Shown: positions 1 to 9,636, counted from the stretch's first letter. The stretch: 64,000 bases of DNA from Candidatus Roizmanbacteria bacterium (GCA_024654535.1 JANLHL010000042.1:13312-77311); one strand, 5' to 3'. The notes: generated by a model not told the origin, from the sequence alone. A program made the numbers and translations.

Positions 1-236
1 GTGTAATTTGCTGCTTTGACTGAACCTGTAACAAACTGATCGGTATTGTTTCTGAATTGTACAAGTAGACGGGTTTCTTCGTTGGGTTTAACTTCTTTTT
101 CAATGACTGCTGGATATGCTGTTATTGAAAAATCTTTAGCTTGTGCGAATACTGTAGAACGAATTGCAAAGACTACGAACATTACTACACCTGCGCACGC
201 TAGTGCAATAGTTGTTTGAGTTATTTTATTTTTCAT
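1..236 (-). CDS. Partial CDS (N-terminal part, continues beyond window start): signal-peptide surface protein, DUF916-like, paralog of 8103..9113
   Basis: Own translation from ATG at 236: MKNKITQTTIALACAGVVMFVVFAIRSTVFAQAKDFSITAYPAVIEKEVKPNEETRLLVQFRNNTDQFVTGSVKAANY..., open to the window edge. It starts 7 nt after the stop of 244..1653. The pattern after the signal peptide parallels ISLSVNPPQVQIITKPDKSLTQGFTFVNDGDEG of the 8103..9113 product. Confidence 0.5.
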   Translation of the reverse strand, partial: MKNKITQTTIALACAGVVMFVVFAIRSTVFAQAKDFSITAYPAVIEKEVKPNEETRLLVQFRNNTDQFVTGSVKAANY

Positions 237-243
237 AGGTATA

Positions 244-1653
244 TTAGAATTTCGGTGTTGCAACATAGGTAAGTTTATTAAAGTACGTTCCGGTTTGTTG
301 CGATGTGCTCACCGATAACCGTGGGCATGAATAGATTTGAGACCCGCTTGTTGAGCTAGACTTAGTCATTATAGTAACTGCACTCGAGGAAAATGGTTTG
401 TAGCCGCTTGCATTGGTAAATGCCGCCTCGGTTCCAGTAATGTTTGCAAGCGTATAACCGAAACCGTTATTCGTTGCGGTAGCCCATGCTGCTGGTGTCC
501 CGGTGGTACAGCTTGTATCACACGATGTATCTGGTATTGTAGTAACGCCAGCTCCATTTAAGCTCAATGCTTGGTCATATTGAGCAGTTAATACATATCC
601 ATTCGCAGAGTTCGTAGTAATCGCGTGTGTTTGTGCAGCGTCATAAAACGTATTCGTATTTATTATTGAGCCAAATGGTACGCTCGACGCTGTTGATGTT
701 ACCGATGTTGTTGTGCCACAAGCCGAGGTGCTCACATTTACTCCAGCTATCGTATATGAAATCGTTTCTTCTACAGTAGCGCTTACAAAAACCCCATCGA
801 CTGGAGCCACCTTTGTGATCGTTTTATCCTGAGGATTATTGCTTGAATCTTCGGTTTGTAGAATGATTGAATAACTATCGGCAATTCCGCGAGTATGTGT
901 TGTTCCTGATGGAGCAGGGTTGATAAAGCGCAGTGTCGTATCAGATACGTCTCCAACAACAAATGAATATGAGCTACCCGCATTGAGTGCTGATGACAGT
1001 GTCATGAGTATGACATTATATCCAGCACCATAAGTGAGAGTTGCTGCAGACTTTGTGAAACCGGTTGGTGTCACGTAGGTATTTATGTTCCCTGTTGTTA
1101 GTTTATTGACGTCGAAACCAGAGTTATCTGGTATGCCGTCATTATAGTTGCTTGTTGCTGAAGCTACGGATAATCGTATATATCCACCAGATGCTATCGC
1201 CGTTCTCGGCGTGAATGTTACGGTGAGTCGCGCAGACTGCGTTGAAACAACCGCTGTTCCTGCAGTAAGCGCATTGGCTATGGCAGAAGTAACAGCAATT
1301 TGCGTAGATGTGGGGGTAGAAGCAACAGTATAGGTTGCTTGGCTGCTACACCCATTTGAAGCAGGATTGTTAAAACAAAGAACATCGTTTGGCCATATAT
1401 TGTACGTATTATTATCCGGGTTGCCCGAGTTAGCTATTATTACATTTGTTGCATTAGCTCCAGTTGTTGTGCCAACTTTTGCATAATATGATAGGCGAGA
1501 ATTGGTCAATGTTGTATAGGCTTGTGTGAAGTTCAATACCTGAGCATGAGCAGGGGTGGCCGAAAACGCAAAAATAGCGAAAAAACCAAAGAAAAACAAT
1601 GATCCTTTAATGAGTAAAGGCATTTGTACGGTGTTATTTAATTTCGTTTTCAC
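244..1653 (-). CDS. Secreted Thr/Ser-rich surface protein with WxL-like C-terminal domain (paralog of 7175..8014)
   Basis: 469-aa ORF. Signal peptide MPLLIKGSLFFFGFFAIFAFSATPAHA; ATG at 1623 is more likely than GTG at 1653. The C-terminal ~150 aa align with the 7175..8014 product (IPDTSC, GFGY, Y[KR]PF, tG.Y..L.[FY][IV]A.PK[FY] at the extreme C-terminus). Confidence 0.7.
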   Translation of the reverse strand: MKTKLNNTVQMPLLIKGSLFFFGFFAIFAFSATPAHAQVLNFTQAYTTLTNSRLSYYAKVGTTTGANATNVIIANSGNPDNNTYNIWPNDVLCFNNPASNGCSSQATYTVASTPTSTQIAVTSAIANALTAGTAVVSTQSARLTVTFTPRTAIASGGYIRLSVASATSNYNDGIPDNSGFDVNKLTTGNINTYVTPTGFTKSAATLTYGAGYNVILMTLSSALNAGSSYSFVVGDVSDTTLRFINPAPSGTTHTRGIADSYSIILQTEDSSNNPQDKTITKVAPVDGVFVSATVEETISYTIAGVNVSTSACGTTTSVTSTASSVPFGSIINTNTFYDAAQTHAITTNSANGYVLTAQYDQALSLNGAGVTTIPDTSCDTSCTTGTPAAWATATNNGFGYTLANITGTEAAFTNASGYKPFSSSAVTIMTKSSSTSGSQIYSCPRLSVSTSQQTGTYFNKLTYVATPKF

Positions 1654-1830
1654 TTCTTATTTGTGCGTTAAGCATTAATTTGTCGATATACTTTAACTTC
1701 ACTACCCACGAGATAGGTACAGTATTATATTCTCTTCGATTAATGTCAAGTGAATATTGTGTTATGTAGTTGATTCTTAATAAGAATGCGTTTTGGAAAG
1801 TGATGCAAATTTCACTTGCGTGCTTAGTAG

Positions 1831-2856
1831 TTAAAGTAGCCCTATGGCAGGATCTATTTCCAAACTTGTGAATCTGTCGCTTAAAACGGCCTTTATAACA
1901 TCTTGATCAAGTGCGCCCATAACATCTGTAAGTATTGTATATAGCTCTGGTGACGTTTCTCGTACACGTTCAATATCATTCATTGAAATACCTGCTTTCA
2001 TAAGTCTTCTTGCAAAATTCTCTACTTCGTAATGACCCATACGTCTTGTGGGCAAATTCAATGCCCTAAGGCATTGAAGCGCTACTTCAGGTGAATGAAC
2101 GATTAGCTTTGGTAAGAATCGTATTAATGTACTCAACCTCTGCCTAGGAATGAGAAGATTCTCTCTATTCAAACTGGTTAGCTCTTCGAAATAGTTGACG
2201 TCGTAGTATGTAGTAGGTGCAGTTGGGGGTTTCAGTATTTGAGGTGGATAATATTCTGCAATACCTTGCGGAGTATGTCTCTGAACAGTTCTACCAAATG
2301 GTTCAAGATAACCCACTCGTATATCAATTTCTAATCCAGTTAAGTTGGGCATTGTGAAACTGTCTTCAATTTCCATTCTCATTATGCTGGCAATGACTGC
2401 TCCCACACCAGGGCCGTATTGCAGAGAAGCCTCGCCAATAAGCTTGACTTGCAGGGCAGCACCGATGAACGTATCATCAGCTAAATCGTTATAATAGGAG
2501 AGATTCTGTGCTGCGGCTCTTTGTTTGGCGGTAAACGCGCGTTTCATATACCTCTCTAATTCTGGTGCAAAGCACATACTTTGAGGATTAGAAATTTGTG
2601 CATTCTGTGCATGCATCATCATCATGAGTAATAATGGGTTTTCACCTGTATCTTGGCGATTAAACATATAGTGAGCTGCAACTGCTGCAAAATTTCTAAC
2701 AAAGCCAGTATCATTCTCGTCTTTGAAAATGTGGGTAAGCATATATAGGGGCAGATCTTTTCCGGTAAGCCGTGCTGAATTATGTAGAAAGTCGGGAAGG
2801 CTCAAGCCTCCCGAAATATATTGCTCACGCAAAGCGGCTTCATGTTCTAATGCCAT
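1831..2856 (-). CDS. Hypothetical cytoplasmic protein (341 aa), no recognisable domain
   Basis: Long uninterrupted ORF with no signal peptide. Composition is less Lys/Asn-rich than its neighbours. Divergent from the PaaX-like regulator gene. Confidence 0.6.
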   Translation of the reverse strand: MALEHEAALREQYISGGLSLPDFLHNSARLTGKDLPLYMLTHIFKDENDTGFVRNFAAVAAHYMFNRQDTGENPLLLMMMMHAQNAQISNPQSMCFAPELERYMKRAFTAKQRAAAQNLSYYNDLADDTFIGAALQVKLIGEASLQYGPGVGAVIASIMRMEIEDSFTMPNLTGLEIDIRVGYLEPFGRTVQRHTPQGIAEYYPPQILKPPTAPTTYYDVNYFEELTSLNRENLLIPRQRLSTLIRFLPKLIVHSPEVALQCLRALNLPTRRMGHYEVENFARRLMKAGISMNDIERVRETSPELYTILTDVMGALDQDVIKAVLSDRFTSLEIDPAIGLL

Positions 2857-2995
2857 ATATATGCAGTGTAAAGCTTATAAAAGCTGCAAACTTATATATT
2901 ATAGGATACCACAGAGGAGTGGTGAATTCAAAACATAATACATACTATTCAATTTGTTCAAACTGAGCGTAAATCATCAATGTTCGATAAACGTA

Positions 2996-3024
2996 TTGAC
3001 AAAAATGTTAACGAGTGTTACTTT
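2996..3024 (+). promoter_or_regulatory. Sigma70-type promoter of the PaaX-like gene (TTGACA-17 nt-TACTTT, then 6 nt to ATG 3031)
   Basis: TTGACA at 2996-3001, 17-nt spacer, TGt+TACTTT at 3016-3024, ATG at 3031. The geometry implies a leaderless mRNA. Confidence 0.45.
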
Positions 3025-3030
3025 TATGTC

Positions 3031-3783
3031 ATGGCAACAAAAACACCGAACATCAAAGAAAGGCGTATACGCATACTCTTAACACTATTTTTACTTGATA
3101 AAACACGTCCGCACAATATATTTGATGATACGATAAAAAAAGTATTTTCACTACCATCGGACTCGCCAAGGACTCGAGGAACGCTCCGTCAGATGCTTGC
3201 AGATGAAGTAATAAAAAAAGAAGAAAAACTTTATAGAATAACGAACGTGGGTCTTTCAGAGCTTGCTTTATCCTTCCCGTTCGTTCGTTTCATGGAGATG
3301 CAGTGGGACGGCTTGTATAGAATTTTGTCGTATGAAGTGCCAGAACATAAAAGGAAATTGCGTGATAGTTTGCGCAGGGAAATAAGTGGATGGGGGTTTG
3401 GTCCGTGGCATAGATCATTTTGGGTGACACCGCATCCTATTGTAGCTGATTTGAAAGCACTTATAACGAACACGCCCTATGAGCCCTTTGTACAGATGTT
3501 TGAGGGTAAAACAGTTGTTGGCGATGAAAAAATACTGCTTGAGAAGGTATGGAACACTCCTAAAATAGAGGAGGGCTATAAGATATTGTTTCGGCAATGG
3601 CATGAAGTTTTGTCGAAAGAAGATTTAAACGGTAGTGAAAAACTGAGTAAGATTTTTTCTCTGTATACCGATATGCTCAAAATAGATCCGGGATTACCTT
3701 CTGCACTTGTCGGAGAAAAGTGGATTGGCCGAGAAGCATACGATATTTTTGTCGAAATGCGTGGGATTTTGCTCACAAAGTAA
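3031..3783 (+). CDS. PaaX-like transcriptional regulator
   Basis: Winged-helix-like N-terminus plus C-terminal motif LRREISGWGFGPWHRSFWVTPHP, typical of the PaaX_C family. The start is moved from 2980 to 3031 (MATKTPN) because the promoter sits inside the longer ORF. Confidence 0.55.
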   Translation: MATKTPNIKERRIRILLTLFLLDKTRPHNIFDDTIKKVFSLPSDSPRTRGTLRQMLADEVIKKEEKLYRITNVGLSELALSFPFVRFMEMQWDGLYRILSYEVPEHKRKLRDSLRREISGWGFGPWHRSFWVTPHPIVADLKALITNTPYEPFVQMFEGKTVVGDEKILLEKVWNTPKIEEGYKILFRQWHEVLSKEDLNGSEKLSKIFSLYTDMLKIDPGLPSALVGEKWIGREAYDIFVEMRGILLTK

Positions 3784-4624
3784 TTACCACGTCTCCCTCC
3801 GTATCTGTTCTTCGTTTTGGAATGTGTAAGGCTTCCAATAGGTCTATGGTTTCTTTGTGTGGATGTCCATAGATATTGCCTTTACCTGAACTTATCACAG
3901 CAACTGCAGGTTGGCTCATGCGTACGAGTTTTTTCGATATGCCGTATCGAGAGCCATGATGATTCACTTTCCAAATAGTGTTTTTAAGTACGTATCCTTG
4001 CAATGCTTTTTCTGCAACAGCACTATCCATATCGGATAGTAAAAGAACTGTCTTTGTGCCGTGATCACCGTACATTGTTGTATATATGCCGAGCGCAGTA
4101 TTGTTTGAGTCGGAAAGGTTAAGATTTGTATTTGTATACATATTTTTCTCTGGCCAAACAACAGTAAAAAGGGAAGATCCAAAATGAGCACGATCTCCTT
4201 TAAATAATGGCTGTAAAAGTATATGTTTTTTCACTAGTGAAGCTCGTATATCGTGCCAAAATTGCGGATATGCTGTCGTCGATAATGGTAAAAGCCCTGC
4301 ACTTGATGTATAGATAGACTTAATGGTATACGATTGAATGAGGTTAAGTAGTCCCGACGCATGGTCTGATTGAGCGTGGGTAATGAAAATGGCTTCAATG
4401 GTTCGATCAAAAAGCGGCATGTTCCTGTTCAGACAATTTGTAACATATGAACCTTTTCCCGTGTCTACTAAGACATCAGATCCATTCGGAAGTCGAAAAT
4501 ATATTGCATCACCTTGCCCAACATCGCAGAATACGACCCTTGGTGTATATCGTGATAGTGTAGAAACAAAGAGAAATAGTGATAGCAATCCCGAACCGAT
4601 AAGTATGTAAAGCGTGTGCTTCAT
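3773..4624 (-). CDS. comEC: ComEC/Rec2 C-terminal metallo-beta-lactamase domain protein (split ComEC, part 2)
   Basis: Motifs VFCDVGQGDAIYF, ITHAQSDHASGL and NHHGS. An N-terminal TM helix is present. ATG at 4624 overlaps the upstream stop as ATGA; the track start at 4639 is also possible. Confidence 0.85.
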   Translation of the reverse strand: MKHTLYILIGSGLLSLFLFVSTLSRYTPRVVFCDVGQGDAIYFRLPNGSDVLVDTGKGSYVTNCLNRNMPLFDRTIEAIFITHAQSDHASGLLNLIQSYTIKSIYTSSAGLLPLSTTAYPQFWHDIRASLVKKHILLQPLFKGDRAHFGSSLFTVVWPEKNMYTNTNLNLSDSNNTALGIYTTMYGDHGTKTVLLLSDMDSAVAEKALQGYVLKNTIWKVNHHGSRYGISKKLVRMSQPAVAVISSGKGNIYGHPHKETIDLLEALHIPKRRTDTEGDVVITL

Positions 4625-5529
4625 ATATGAATCACACATAAACTGGCTACAACAGATCCTACTCGAACGATTATGAGGAGTGCATTAATGAGCCCAAAGA
4701 GAATATATGCACCCACCATCGCCAATGGAGCATATACGTGGTAGAGTACACTTTCTATTACCCCAAAGACCATTATTGGCTCGATGAGCCATCCGACCGC
4801 TATGTTCATAGGAATGCTAAATAAGGATAACTCTCTAAAATAAGCTAAAAGCAGGGGAGTTGTAAAAATTTGAGCGCTGAGAGTGAGAGCTCCCGCATCT
4901 ATACAATAGACGACGATATCTTTACGGAGCGTAATAATGTGAAGTAGCCATGAACGGATGGGTAGGTAGAAAAGTAAGATACCCAACGTGGCCCCTGCTG
5001 ACAGTAAAAATGAGACAGAAGTTATCCATTGCGGGTATACGATAAGTAAGCCAGTTACTGTGATGATAAATGCCCACAGGCCCGAAATGGGGGCGTTAAA
5101 AATGAGCGCTAGAGAGGCGATACTTGCCATACATACAGCACGCAAAATAGGAGGATCTCTAAATAGGGCGAGGTAGAAAGCTGCAATGATAATGGTGAGA
5201 ATTGCTTTTATTTTGTAGCCTATTTTTTTTTCGAGTCCAGCAAAAAAACCAAGTAATAGTGTGATATTTTGTCCAGATAAAACCAAGAGGTGTACTAAGC
5301 CCGTCACTTTGAACACATCATACATATCCTGTGTCAGCGCAGTCTTTTGTCCCCATACCATTGCTGCGGCAACAGAAGCTATATCATGGGGGAGTAGTAG
5401 AAAATACGGACGGATGAGTGCGTCAATCATTTCTGCGAAATGATAATAACCAATGACCAATATCAAATTTCCAACTTGACTCTCCGGTAGGCGGGAGAAC
5501 GTCAAAACCCCAATTTTCAAAAAATACAT
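4621..5529 (-). CDS. comEC: ComEC/Rec2 competence (transmembrane channel) domain protein (split ComEC, part 1)
   Basis: Polytopic membrane protein with the competence-domain signature GLVHLLVLSGQNITLLLGF. Lies directly upstream of the MBL-domain ORF. Confidence 0.8.
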   Translation of the reverse strand: MYFLKIGVLTFSRLPESQVGNLILVIGYYHFAEMIDALIRPYFLLLPHDIASVAAAMVWGQKTALTQDMYDVFKVTGLVHLLVLSGQNITLLLGFFAGLEKKIGYKIKAILTIIIAAFYLALFRDPPILRAVCMASIASLALIFNAPISGLWAFIITVTGLLIVYPQWITSVSFLLSAGATLGILLFYLPIRSWLLHIITLRKDIVVYCIDAGALTLSAQIFTTPLLLAYFRELSLFSIPMNIAVGWLIEPIMVFGVIESVLYHVYAPLAMVGAYILFGLINALLIIVRVGSVVASLCVIHI

Positions 5530-5559
5530 TTGGATTGATTGGAAACTGTTTTAATTTGA

Positions 5560-5615
5560 TATTTGCCATTTGAACTTTATTGGATATTTGAAATTGGGTA
5601 TTGGATATTGCTACT
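5560..5615. repeat. Copy of mosaic intergenic repeat family (TTGGATATT / GGGTATTGGATATTG modules)
   Basis: ttattggatatttgaaattgggtattggatattgc lies between the comEA stop and the comEC start. It shares modules with 6263-6424, 8019-8180, 9609-9632 and 15555-15699. Confidence 0.5.
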
Positions 5616-5620
5616 AACAG

Positions 5621-6184
5621 CTATAATTCTATTAAGGCTTTAATATTTTCGAATGTCTTTTGTCCCAGTACTTTTTTACCGACTAATTCATCAATACTTT
5701 CGTACGGCCTATTTTTAACAATTTTGCTTGCTGTGACAGGCCCAACCCCTGGTAGGAGTTCAAGTTGAGAAGTGGTGGCGGTATTAATACGTACGGACGA
5801 TAGTGTTGCTTCTACACTTTCTGTGCGCTCTATTAGGAAAGATATATAAATTTTTTCTTCATCTATGACGTTCTTGGATAAGTTCATATTTTTAGCAACG
5901 TAATATCGATCTGCCTGTTCGATCAAACCTCCTGCATTTGTAAGCGCGTGTACTAATCGTGCATTTTCTTGAAGTTCATATACCCCGGGTTTTTGTACGG
6001 CACCTTCGATATCCACAACAACAACAGATTTTTGAACATTCTCTATATGAGGGGGTTCTATTTCTGGCTGTGACGACATACCTTGTCTTAATATAATGAG
6101 TGTTACTATAATGCACAGGATTGAAATAACTAATCCTATAAGAGGGATGTTCGGCCTTTTTAAAAATTTGTGTATTTTTTCCAT
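5621..6184 (-). CDS. comEA: ComEA DNA receptor (SLBB + helix-hairpin-helix)
   Basis: N-terminal TM anchor. SLBB-like GAVQKPGVYEL. C-terminal HhH motif TTSQLELLPGVGPVTASKIVKNRPYESIDEL. Leaderless-type promoter TG-TATGAA-N6-ATG. Confidence 0.85.
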   Translation of the reverse strand: MEKIHKFLKRPNIPLIGLVISILCIIVTLIILRQGMSSQPEIEPPHIENVQKSVVVVDIEGAVQKPGVYELQENARLVHALTNAGGLIEQADRYYVAKNMNLSKNVIDEEKIYISFLIERTESVEATLSSVRINTATTSQLELLPGVGPVTASKIVKNRPYESIDELVGKKVLGQKTFENIKALIEL

Positions 6185-6262
6185 AGTACTTTCATACAGT
6201 GTCTGTAAGCGAGTTGCAATGGATTACATACGACAAAATAGGAGAAGTAGAAGGTAATAACA

Positions 6263-6424
6263 ATAATATCCAATGTCAAATACCCAATACCCAAGTAATG
6301 TCAAATGACAAAGTCCAAATTACAAATGAAATCACAAATCCAAATGTCAAAATAAGACAAGGTTCGATTTTTGACGTTGGAACTTTGTCATTTATTTGAC
6401 ATTGGATATTGGGATTTTGACATT
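6263..6424. repeat. Mosaic palindromic intergenic repeat (MITE-like, no coding capacity)
   Basis: Left arm atatccaatgtcaaata...aatgacaaagtccaa (6267-6318) is the reverse complement of right arm ttggaactttgtcatt+tatttgacattggatat (6377-6409). Built from the ATATCCAAT, TGTCAAATGACAAA and CCAAAT modules seen elsewhere. Confidence 0.6.
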
Positions 6425-6447
6425 CTTTCTCTGTTCTATGTTATTCT
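6417..6447 (+). promoter_or_regulatory. Candidate promoter for 6454 gene; the -35 is supplied by the repeat element
   Basis: TTGACA at 6417-6422 (inside the repeat), a suboptimal 19-nt spacer, TGt+TATTCT at 6439-6447, then 6 nt to ATG 6454. Confidence 0.35.
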
Positions 6448-6453
6448 TTTTAT

Positions 6454-7143
6454 ATGCAAAATAAGCTTTCTTACCCTTTAGAATTGTTTGGCGTTGTTAT
6501 AACCACATTTGCAGCGCTTTTTTTTGTCTATTCACCTTTTGCAAACTATGATTTACAGGTTGTAGCGGTATTATTTATCGCTTATTTTTTTCTACGAAAA
6601 CAGTTTTCTATGAGTCCTTTTTTATATCTTATTGAAGCGCTCATATTTATATTTATCGTTCTTATGACGGTTTTTGAAACGGGAGGAATGTCTTCGCCTT
6701 TTTTCTTTTTACTGTATTTTTTGTTGTTTGCTGTTTCTCTACTCCTAACAGGTTCGATAAGTCTGATACTGACATTACTACTGGTTGTATTATTTTTATT
6801 TTCCTCTCCCTCGGGAAGTGTCATGACATTTATGCCTGTCTTTTCATTACCCTTTATTGCGCCGTTTGCGCAATATTTGGGTTTTCTAAAAACGAAATAT
6901 ACTCGTCAGCGTGAATTATTAGGACAAATTGAGAAGAAGAAAGCGAGGATAGAAAAGTCTAAAACTTATGAAAAAGAACAGACGCTTATTTTCTTAACAA
7001 CAGCGTTGTATAGACAAATAGAAGATATGAACGAACGCATCACTAACTTTATGGGAGACGCAGACTTAGACTACTTACGTACAAAAATAAAACAAGTACA
7101 GAAGTTAATACATGAATTTAGAGAGTATATCGAAAAGATATAA
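6454..7143 (+). CDS. Polytopic membrane protein with C-terminal coiled-coil/dimerisation-like helix, function unknown
   Basis: 229-aa ORF. About 5 hydrophobic helices followed by a charged helical tail (KKKARIEKSKTYEKEQTLIFLTTALYRQIEDMNERI...). Confidence 0.6.
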   Translation: MQNKLSYPLELFGVVITTFAALFFVYSPFANYDLQVVAVLFIAYFFLRKQFSMSPFLYLIEALIFIFIVLMTVFETGGMSSPFFFLLYFLLFAVSLLLTGSISLILTLLLVVLFLFSSPSGSVMTFMPVFSLPFIAPFAQYLGFLKTKYTRQRELLGQIEKKKARIEKSKTYEKEQTLIFLTTALYRQIEDMNERITNFMGDADLDYLRTKIKQVQKLIHEFREYIEKI

Positions 7144-7174
7144 AGGCAATATCCAAGTTCAAATATTGTAGAAA

Positions 7175-8014
7175 ATGAAAACACTTTTTTCGCAGATGAT
7201 GCAATTTGTTTGCGATCGAACCACTCCGATTGCCATCGGAGTAAAGAGCAGCGATCACTGCACAAATCGCATACATCTGCTCAAATATTCAACCATAGTA
7301 ATATTAGTCGGAATTCTTTTGTTCCTCATTTTTACCTCAGCTTCTACTGTAAGAGCGATTGACATGAGCTCGTCGAGTTACCGTATTATTTTTGGCACAC
7401 TCAATAGTGGTGGGAGTAGAACCACTTCATCGGGGTATAAATTGGATATAAGCTTAGGTCAAGTTGCTGCAGCACAATTTAATTCATCGGGCTACGTGAT
7501 TAAGGCAGGTTTCCAATATGTACGTACGCTGACGCCGTTTTCTTTTACGCTCTCTGATACGTCACTTGATTTAGGTACACTATTGCCGAATACATTTTCA
7601 ACGCAACAGCTTAATGCAACTGTCAATCATAGAGGAGTTGGGTATCAGGTGGCAACTATAGCAGATACTCGACTAAAACAACTTTTTGGATCAGCAGAAA
7701 TTCCAGACACAAGTTGTAATGGTGGACCATCGACTTGTACAGAAACTACTGCTGCACTGTGGAATTCTACAGGAACCTATGGGTTTGGATATAATGCTAG
7801 TGGCGATGATATCAGTGGTGACTTTATAACGAGTAGTTATTTTAGACCATTCCCTACAAGGACTGATGCTGAGTCGGCAGCAACGTTTATGAGCTCAAAT
7901 GCAACGGCGGTAGCCCGGACTGCAACGGTGACGGTCAAAGCAAATATACAGGGAACACAAACTGCGGGTAATTATCAGACAATCTTGAGTTTTATAGCAA
8001 TACCAAAGTATTAA
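7175..8014 (+). CDS. Secreted surface protein with WxL-like C-terminal domain (paralog of 244..1653)
   Basis: Signal anchor YSTIVILVGILLFLIFTSASTVRA. Three short SS[SG]Y-x-[ILV] motifs. The C-terminus aligns with 244..1653 (IPDTSC, GFGY, YFRPF, AGNYQTILSFIAIPKY). Confidence 0.7.
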   Translation: MKTLFSQMMQFVCDRTTPIAIGVKSSDHCTNRIHLLKYSTIVILVGILLFLIFTSASTVRAIDMSSSSYRIIFGTLNSGGSRTTSSGYKLDISLGQVAAAQFNSSGYVIKAGFQYVRTLTPFSFTLSDTSLDLGTLLPNTFSTQQLNATVNHRGVGYQVATIADTRLKQLFGSAEIPDTSCNGGPSTCTETTAALWNSTGTYGFGYNASGDDISGDFITSSYFRPFPTRTDAESAATFMSSNATAVARTATVTVKANIQGTQTAGNYQTILSFIAIPKY

Positions 8015-8018
8015 ATAT

Positions 8019-8180
8019 ACAATGCCAAATATCCAATATCCAACCCGCCTGCCCGCTTCGACGCGAGGCGAGCCGGCGAGGCAGGTAAATGCCAAAGCTC
8101 CAATGTCAAAGGTAGGCAATAAGAATTTGTCATTGATATTTTGTCATTCATTTGTCATTTGGATTTTGTCATTTGTCGTT
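8019..8180. repeat. Mosaic intergenic repeat copy with embedded GC-rich hairpin (8045-8086)
   Basis: caatgccaaatatccaatatccaa, then the GC hairpin (cctgcc...ggcagg), then aatgccaaagctccaatgtcaaa, then tttgtcatt repeated four times. Overlaps the 5' end of the next CDS. Confidence 0.55.
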
Positions 8181-9113
8181 ACATTATTTTTACCATTCTA
8201 TTTCCCTGTTATGGCCCAGCAGATAAGTCTTTCTGTAAACCCACCGCAAGTGCAGATAATAACAAAACCGGACAAAAGCCTTACACAAGGATTCACGTTC
8301 GTGAATGATGGAGATGAAGGAATTTTTAGCATTCGGGTTGTGTCCTTCGAACCAACGATAAATGGAGGAAGAATAATGAAAGATAAAGCTGAGGGTCCAA
8401 TACGCTTTTCATTGGCAAATCCCACGATTCATATGGATGAGCCGTTTGCATTGAGTTCAAAAGAGCAAATACAAGCACTTCTTTCAGTGAGAGTCACTCC
8501 AGGAGCGCCAGAGGGTGATTATTACTATTCAATCATGCTTATTTCTCAGGCACCCGTTTCTCAGAGGACTTCGGCTCGTGGCGTTGGTGTCATTACAGCG
8601 AACATACTCATTACTGTTACTCATGATGGCTTTTTAGATAATCAGATTAAAGTAGCTCAATTTCAAGTGGTTCCAGATTATCAGATCAATCTTTTTGGAA
8701 CAACATACACTATTCTTACTCAATCACAGACAATTCCAGTCATATTCAGTGTTGCTAATATAGGTAAAAACCTGTTTTCGCCAACGGTTAAAGTGACACT
8801 TCAAGGACCGTTTGGTTTGGAGCGTAATGTTGAAATGATTCCAGTATTTTTATTGGCTCACACGCAGCGGCAACTTTTTGCAGAAAATGTAAATTGTCAG
8901 AATTGTACAAATAACCCAAGCGTTGTATTGAGAGGGAGTGGGTGGGGGAAGTATGTGGCAATAGCCGAAATAAATATTGAGGGAAGTGATAAAAAGTTGT
9001 ACGCGCAAACACAGTTTTGGGTCCTGCCAGTCTCGCTCATTATGTATGTTGCCATAGCGATTGGTACCGGAATGGTTATTCTCCTCATATTGAAGTTTAC
9101 AAAGCGCCATTAA
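8103..9113 (+). CDS. DUF916/DUF3324-like cell-surface protein (signal peptide, two beta-rich domains, C-terminal TM anchor with basic tail)
   Basis: Architecture: signal peptide ...FVIWILSFVVTLFLPFYFPVMA|QQ, N-domain ISLSVNPPQVQIITKPDKSL..FVNDGDEG, C-terminal TM VSLIMYVAIAIGTGMVILLILKFTKRH. ATG at 8103 is preferred over 8022, because 8022-8102 is repeat and GC hairpin. Confidence 0.65.
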   Translation: MSKVGNKNLSLIFCHSFVIWILSFVVTLFLPFYFPVMAQQISLSVNPPQVQIITKPDKSLTQGFTFVNDGDEGIFSIRVVSFEPTINGGRIMKDKAEGPIRFSLANPTIHMDEPFALSSKEQIQALLSVRVTPGAPEGDYYYSIMLISQAPVSQRTSARGVGVITANILITVTHDGFLDNQIKVAQFQVVPDYQINLFGTTYTILTQSQTIPVIFSVANIGKNLFSPTVKVTLQGPFGLERNVEMIPVFLLAHTQRQLFAENVNCQNCTNNPSVVLRGSGWGKYVAIAEINIEGSDKKLYAQTQFWVLPVSLIMYVAIAIGTGMVILLILKFTKRH

Positions 9114-9608: not shown

Positions 9609-9636
9609 ATTGGGTATTGGTTATTGGATATTCCTT

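Follow-up and report, generated by a model that had tools for sequence, protein, structure and literature searches.

Pam pili are filaments specific to the Candidate Phyla Radiation (CPR) and distinct from the filaments characterised before; they were solved by cryo-electron microscopy (cryo-EM) in Ca. Mycosynbacter amalyticus, a member of the Saccharimonadia (bioRxiv 10.64898/2026.03.03.709456, June 2026 preprint). The filaments assemble by donor-strand exchange, and the chaperones of the system are anchored by a transmembrane (TM) helix. Among the M. amalyticus pilins PamA, PamB, PamE and PamT, the first two are composed of an N-terminal sandwich, a linker strand given to the next subunit and a truncated immunoglobulin (Ig)-like C-terminal domain, and PamT is a single-domain tip subunit without a linker strand; the chaperones PamC and PamD resemble FimC/PapD and bear a TM helix at the C-terminus, and PamR is an RbmA-like membrane terminator (bioRxiv 10.64898/2026.03.03.709456). 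Homologues are confined to the CPR and concentrated in Saccharimonadia and Microgenomatia, among them a Roizmanbacteria PamA homologue with 21% identity and conserved structural homology to PamA (bioRxiv 10.64898/2026.03.03.709456). Here we describe a locus of two gene pairs, S–C1 and L–C2, at the beginning of a 64,000-nt stretch (hereafter the window) of a Candidatus Roizmanbacteria metagenome-assembled genome (names NUV65_06105/06110). With a probability of roughly 80%, we consider it to be the Microgenomatia form of the CPR Pam pilus, assembled by donor-strand exchange without an usher. This assignment draws on homologies, protein architectures, predicted folds and gene pairing, all of them observed.

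The four genes are arranged as follows:

1..236, minus strand: C2 fragment, the N-terminal 78 aa of a second chaperone-like protein (WxLIP-family, PamC/D-like) that runs off the window start
244..1653, minus strand: L, 469 aa, a PamA-like large pilin
7175..8014, plus strand: S, 279 aa, a small PamT-like subunit
8103..9113, plus strand: C1, a membrane-anchored chaperone-like protein (WxLIP family, PamC/D-like)

An initial annotation had placed the open reading frames (ORFs) at these positions and had described two inverted cassettes around the competence genes; the positions match, and the pairs are indeed inverted, with gene starts 5.5 kb apart and comEA and comEC between them. The C2 gene starts 7 nt past the L stop codon. 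Most homologues of S begin ca. 35–40 codons downstream of 7175, and for C1 the NCBI annotation uses an alternative start at 8022 (363 aa).

The arrangement of a pilin gene followed by a chaperone-like gene is not a peculiarity of this genome. The S motif GYx[VI][KR]AGFQY, searched for in the GTDB representative genomes, yielded 193 relatives, of which 80 loci were kept; all of these belong to Microgenomatia (Roizman-, Woese-, Collierbacteria and others), and the window's own genome lies outside them. Restricted to loci with enough room on the contig, a C gene directly follows S in 71/76 loci (median gap 9 nt) and L in 41/45 loci (median gap 6 nt), a pairing far beyond chance. Of the C proteins, 69/70 C1 and 44/45 C2 have a TM-like segment at the C-terminus, and all 80 S copies carry two cysteines, forming one conserved pair. 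The layout of pilin plus chaperone is conserved across the class Microgenomatia. The order of the pairs varies: 28 loci show the colinear order S C1 ... L C2, 8 have the inverted order of the window, which is one inversion apart from the colinear one, and in about ten S, C1, L and C2 are contiguous.

The shared domain of S and L

S and L were predicted to share a C-terminal domain of about 150 aa, and this is borne out by a BLASTP alignment with 28% identity over 163 aa (E=3e-10) that includes the motifs IPDTSC, GFGY, [YF][KR]PF and the terminal G.Y..L.[FY].A.PK[FY]. The S-family hidden Markov model (HMM) matches L at E=~5e-21, and the two C-terminal domains are related by hhalign at 99.8% probability (E=2e-30). 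Their similarity is confined to this part. In S, the domain (ca. 118–279) is preceded by a signal peptide (VRA|ID) and an N-terminal extension of about 57 aa ending in GFQY; in L, it occupies ca. 317–469 and follows a signal peptide, an N-terminal region of about 290 aa and a V-x-V-x-A linker.

Two Pam models of NCBIfam release 20 match proteins of the S and L families. Window S matches NF058579 ('CPR-type pilus protein PamT') end-to-end with E=1.2e-10 and 41 bits, and the same model matches 27/29 S relatives (best E=2.7e-18). The model NF058581 ('Pam pilus system pilin subunit') matches all 29 S relatives (best E=2.8e-12) and, in addition, 36/50 L relatives (best E=5.9e-13). From these matches, the shared domain is identified as the Pam pilin C-terminal domain.

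The predicted structure points in the same direction. The AF2 model of S shows its C-terminal domain with a predicted local distance difference test score (pLDDT) of about 90 or above, and a Foldseek comparison of this domain returned the chaperone-usher pilins CfaB, CS17, the PapG pilin domain, CsuA/B, PapA and FimA as best matches (E=1e-3 to 5e-2). The extension of S (about residues 60–117, ending in the invariant GFQY) is strongly conserved and includes amphipathic strands, yet it is modelled with a pLDDT below 50 and remains unplaced in the monomer; this behaviour is compatible with a segment that would fold only against a partner. L carries a conserved alternating strand, V288-x-V290-x-A292, just ahead of its C-terminal domain. 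The Roizmanbacteria PamA homologue of the preprint supports the proposed two-domain plan of L.

The shared domain had first been taken for a WxL-like domain with a replaced tryptophan, a proposal which did not hold. The WxL model PF13731 matches none of the 29 S and 50 L relatives, no W-x-L motif occurs in the S/L family alignments, and no WxL chain is found among the top 50 fold matches of S. Comparison of S/L with the WxL profile by hhalign gave a probability below 5%; only the last ca. 24 columns, i.e. the last two strands, are aligned, and these correspond to the terminal motif on which the proposal was based. Searches of the PDB sequences with the S- and L-family profiles returned no significant match to either a WxL protein or a pilin. 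WxL membership of S and L is rejected on the PF13731, hhalign and PDB profile results.

Membrane-anchored C proteins and their WxLIP relatives

The partner proteins, in contrast, had been correctly recognised as DUF916/DUF3324 relatives. The predicted architecture of C1, a signal peptide, two Ig-like sandwiches, a TM helix and a basic tail, is supported by an AF2 model computed with 15 homologues (pLDDT 85), in which a signal helix at the N-terminus and a further helix at the C-terminus flank two beta-sandwiches. The top PDB matches of this model in Foldseek are the Enterococcus faecium WxLIP structures of EfmWxLIP1 (9i1y/9i25; E=2e-10 to 7e-9), followed by the chaperones CsuC, CfaA, YadV, EcpB, DraB and FimC and also by RbmA. 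A narrow C1 profile finds no match in the PDB, whereas a joint profile of C1 and C2 finds 9i25_C at E=7.6e-7 as sole significant match of the PDB sequences; no chaperone-usher chaperone is detected by sequence in the whole PDB. Against a set of seven WxLIPs from Firmicutes plasmids, hhalign yields 98.6% for C2 (E=1e-15; 248 columns across both domains) and 94% for C1. The Pfam model PF06030 (WxLIP_PGBD, formerly DUF916) matches 50/100 C-family representatives at E<=1e-3, and three C relatives pass its gathering score; Pfam gives no direct match to the window's own S, L, C1 and C2 proteins. Common ancestry of C1 and C2 with the Firmicutes WxLIPs is thereby well supported. The family is large, comprising 21,413 representatives at E<=1e-3; from the cluster names of ten C-family representatives, a single one is named, as 'hypothetical protein'.

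C1 and C2 differ in their cytoplasmic tails, which are about 9 aa long in C1 and about 34 aa in C2, where a conserved EEIEKLK-type helix hints at an intracellular partner for C2 only. In the C2 proteins of the related loci (L002-L080), the tails show a conserved acidic/basic helix of the form ..LEEELKKEKEEIEKLK..LRKR.

Both the cassettes and their individual proteins are homologous by BLASTP, HMM and hhalign comparison, as the initial annotation had assumed. For the C proteins this is visible on the profile level: pairwise BLAST detects no similarity between C1 and the C2 fragment, and an HMM of C1 relatives fails to detect the 78-aa fragment; an HMM built from 45 C2 proteins of the related loci matches the fragment over its N-terminal 73 positions (E=1.6e-12) as well as window C1 over its full length (E=2.3e-24). 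The two families are related by hhalign at 100% (E=1e-41) with a protein identity of about 17–20%. On the nucleotide level no inverted repeat between the cassettes is found, the sole match being a 22-nt chance alignment. The recent duplication or gene conversion for which the initial annotation had suggested testing thus receives no support, both being ruled out by the absent nucleotide similarity and the low identities of S/L (28%) and C1/C2. Since DNA-level similarity is lacking, the two pairs are real yet ancient paralogues.

With WxL/WxLIP clusters of Lactobacillales and Bacillales (PMC10599100, PMC9772566; PDB 9i1y, 9i25) the locus shares a homologous anchor of the same architecture, a client gene immediately upstream of the anchor gene, and small and large clients whose common domain is C-terminal. 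There, according to prediction, the sandwich of the client is completed by a strand of the WxLIP, which parallels the cap proposed below for the C proteins. The defining WxLIP protein (DUF916, DUF3324 and a TM helix) has its counterpart in the C family, whereas the at least two proteins with a C-terminal dual W-x-L domain by which WxL clusters are also recognised have none among the 79 S and L relatives. The locus further differs by a client domain other than WxL, by two anchors instead of one, by the absence of LPxTG or sortase partners, by its CPR host and by clients whose nearest relatives form polymeric filaments.

Chaperone-usher pili (Pap/Fim, CFA/I and the archaic Csu) resemble the locus in the incomplete, pilin-like Ig fold, the two-Ig-domain chaperone and, by analogy, the presumed logic of donor-strand complementation and exchange. 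They lack any sequence similarity to it in PDB-wide profile searches with C, L and S. The outer-membrane usher and the soluble periplasmic chaperone that define them have no equivalent here: the chaperones are membrane-anchored and no usher occurs among the conserved neighbour genes. CPR bacteria are monoderm. Moreover, the donor strand in Pam is the inter-domain linker and not an N-terminal extension. An earlier assignment of L as a chaperone-usher-style tip adhesin and of S as the polymerising subunit was dropped once this linker-strand architecture was known.

Some C-family proteins are fused to a C-terminal LytR_C domain and others form tandem arrays of two or three C genes (P0164, P0165, 13/100 C-family representatives, L081 and L083), the arrays having no S- or L-type gene among the neighbours checked; the C family therefore occurs beyond Pam-type loci. 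On a metagenomic contig (L082:341-2982), an L-like pilin, matched by the L HMM at E=3e-49, is directly followed by P0161, a C2-like protein above the Pfam gathering score for WxLIP_PGBD. This gene pair bridges the pilin and WxLIP annotations.

Assembly model and alternative readings

The locus matches the Pam system in being CPR-restricted and usher-free with all components sec-exported, in pilins that share a truncated Ig-like C-terminal domain with disulfides, in the combination of a large, putatively two-domain pilin with a small PamT-like subunit, and in a pair of paralogous chaperones, each made of two sandwiches and a TM helix at the C-terminus. The FimC/PapD-like chaperones with such a helix, adjoining the pilin genes, are found in C1 and C2.

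In the favoured scenario for its assembly, S, L, C1 and C2 would be sec-exported and build a surface fibre by donor-strand exchange without an usher. L would act as a PamA-like two-domain pilin, composed of an N-terminal sandwich region, the linker strand and the truncated Ig-like C-terminal domain, and S as a small subunit of the PamT family with the same C-terminal domain. C1 and C2 would serve as dedicated, paralogous chaperones, each tethered to the cytoplasmic membrane by its C-terminal helix and each lending a beta-strand that caps the open groove in the C-terminal domain of its partner. The probable candidate for this capping strand, around C1 163–172, is the conserved strand after a flexible loop at the end of domain 1; in the C1 model a low-confidence loop (154–158) is followed by the conserved strand IGANILISVT. 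Their position resembles that of the flexible F1-G1 loop and the G1 strand in chaperone-usher chaperones. A WxLIP loop is likewise predicted to become the strand that completes the WxL sandwich (PMC10599100). The cap would stay in place until the strand of the next subunit takes over its position, and the linker of L (around 286–296) would displace the chaperone strand and thereby drive polymerisation. Strand complementation, polymerisation, the assignment of tip and base subunits and host attachment are modelled here on the cryo-EM data of M. amalyticus and on the chaperone-usher and WxL-WxLIP precedents.

A number of observations weigh against this assignment. Every NCBIfam Pam score lies below its curated cutoff: window S stays below the equivalog cutoff of 240 bits of NF058579, making it a homologue but not a curated equivalog, and reaches only 18 bits against a cutoff of 55 bits with NF058581 (E=0.0018), while window L has no NCBIfam Pam match of its own and is linked to the family only via its homology to S. 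The sequences are very divergent with sub-threshold model scores, and S and L are therefore to be regarded as divergent relatives with demonstrated homology rather than curated membership. Equivalents of PamB, PamE and PamR are not found in the window by the S-family and C1-family HMMs, which detect only S, L and C1, the C2 fragment being recognised by the C2 HMM alone. The window thus differs from the M. amalyticus system in having only S, L, C1 and C2, in two pilin–chaperone pairs with comEA, comEC and a PaaX-like gene lying between them; given the resemblance of C1 to RbmA, one of the C proteins could fill the role of PamR. The ATP-synthase setting stressed in the preprint has no counterpart either: a motif search that covered the window and up to 10 kb around each of the 80 loci came back without ATP-synthase signatures, and neither an ATP-synthase nor a CorB neighbourhood is present. 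S has a conserved N-terminal extension, unlike PamT, which has no linker strand, and its role is uncertain; a conserved membrane protein upstream of S is a further difference. Finally, C1 and C2 are likened to the PamC and PamD of M. amalyticus (WP_260763277.1, WP_260763284.1) by description, and Pam filaments have so far been seen only in one parasite of the Saccharimonadia. Type IV pilus signatures were absent from the window and the loci in a motif search.

As an alternative, C1 and C2 might each permanently hold one client, S or L, as an adhesin displayed at the membrane surface, with no donor-strand exchange between clients. The strict one-to-one pairing of the genes, the membrane anchors of both chaperone-like proteins and the presence of a single large pilin without a PamR-like terminator at the locus would fit such an arrangement; nevertheless, we consider it very unlikely in view of the homology of S and L to filament-forming Pam pilins, the conserved linker-like strand in L and the structural homology to PamA which the preprint reports for the Roizmanbacteria homologue. 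A WxL-type complex, with S as a divergent small and L as a divergent large WxL protein that the WxLIP homologues would bind non-covalently to the peptidoglycan, forming a static adhesion platform and not a polymer, is highly improbable: C1 and C2 are true WxLIP homologues, the layout of a small and a large protein with a shared C-terminal domain parallels WxL clusters, in 7/8 Firmicutes plasmid clusters carrying both genes the one for WxLIP comes directly after the one for WxL, and the best local S-to-WxL alignment falls on the terminal strand motif, but the model, profile, motif and fold comparisons described above all separate S and L from WxL proteins, and their significant matches are to the models of Pam pilins, a group founded on filament-forming proteins.

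With the Pam-type pilus as the preferred assignment, the initial description of a conserved but undescribed CPR surface module stands in its first half, as documented by the 71/76 and 41/45 paired loci; it does not stand in its second, since the system to which the module belongs as a divergent member was described very recently (the preprint and NCBIfam release 20). The window offers a clean minimal Microgenomatia version of it, with two pilin–chaperone pairs. Two aspects go beyond the preprint text, which mentions neither WxL/DUF916 nor ComEC: the link between C proteins and WxLIPs, and a conserved gene neighbourhood comprising comEA, a split comEC, a PaaX-like gene and a membrane protein. 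A literature search found no link of DUF916 or WxL to the CPR. The sequence homology between C proteins and WxLIPs bears on the evolutionary origin that the preprint authors left open and suggests that WxLIP works like a tethered chaperone. On a far-reaching reading, the membrane-anchored Pam-type chaperones and the Firmicutes WxLIPs would constitute one family, and the CPR Pam pili and the WxL complexes would derive from a shared monoderm strand-complementation system.

Competence genes and other neighbours

Between and beside the two pairs the following genes are found:

1831-2856, minus strand: hypothetical ORF of 341 aa, between L and the PaaX-like gene
2980..3783, plus strand: PaaX-like regulator (Pfam PaaX_M 8e-20, PaaX_C 7e-8)
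3773..4639, minus strand: ORF of the ComEC metallo-beta-lactamase (MBL) domain (NCBIfam TIGR00361, E=4e-24, C-terminal part of the model)
4621..5529, minus strand: ORF of the ComEC competence (transmembrane) domain (TIGR00360, E=2.7e-20)
5621..6184, minus strand: ComEA (TIGR01259, E=4.7e-14)
6454..7143, plus strand: multi-pass membrane protein of 229 aa with a cytoplasmic helical tail, directly upstream of S

Most of these genes accompany the pilin genes throughout the related loci. ComEA and the membrane part of ComEC are each encoded in 67/80 loci, the membrane protein upstream of S in 71/80 and the PaaX-like gene, usually divergent from L, in 52/80, compared with only 18/80 for leucyl-tRNA synthetase (LeuRS). 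The companions of the pilus locus are thus comEA, a split comEC and a PaaX-like regulator instead of the ATP synthase, which might reflect function or merely an inherited gene order. A functional coupling between the Microgenomatia pilus and the DNA-uptake channel of ComEA/ComEC, in which the fibre might for instance capture DNA or a host and share its regulation by the PaaX-like protein, appears unlikely to us; if true, it would explain why the linkage has survived repeated local inversions.

The two ComEC ORFs (3773-5529) overlap by 19 nt in the window. As the membrane and MBL parts reside on separate ORFs in all 57 loci carrying both, with varying frames and spacings, the split does not look like a sequencing error but like a ComEC conserved as two genes. 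The PaaX-like protein is a candidate regulator of the L–C2 pair or of comEC; its gene is divergent from L in colinear loci, and in the window from both the 341-aa ORF and L. That ORF, without homologues in the 80 related loci or matches in Pfam and NCBIfam, looks like a lineage-specific insertion.

Neither Pfam nor the PDB sequences offer a match to the membrane protein encoded upstream of S, which carries the near-invariant motifs SPFFF..YFLLF and NF.GD. This protein may have a hitherto overlooked part in the system, as a component or as a regulator.

Short repeats are scattered over the same region. The motif CCAATATCCAA occurs 18 times in the window with at most one mismatch, compared with 1.9 expected occurrences, and eleven copies lie in or around the intergenic spaces of the locus between 5457 and 9627 (e.g. 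5580-5611, 6284-6412, 7146-7156, 8026-8043 and 9610-9627). Elsewhere it is nearly absent, with an exact copy in 4/92 other loci; in L047 a triple tandem is located between the PaaX-like gene and L. An operator function is conceivable for CCAATATCCAA, as is a repeat particular to this strain. A 57-nt imperfect inverted repeat, 77% complementary, connects 6295-6351 in the intergenic region between comEA and the membrane protein gene with 8126-8182 in the stretch coding for the C1 signal peptide, the second arm holding a repeated TTTGTCATT unit.

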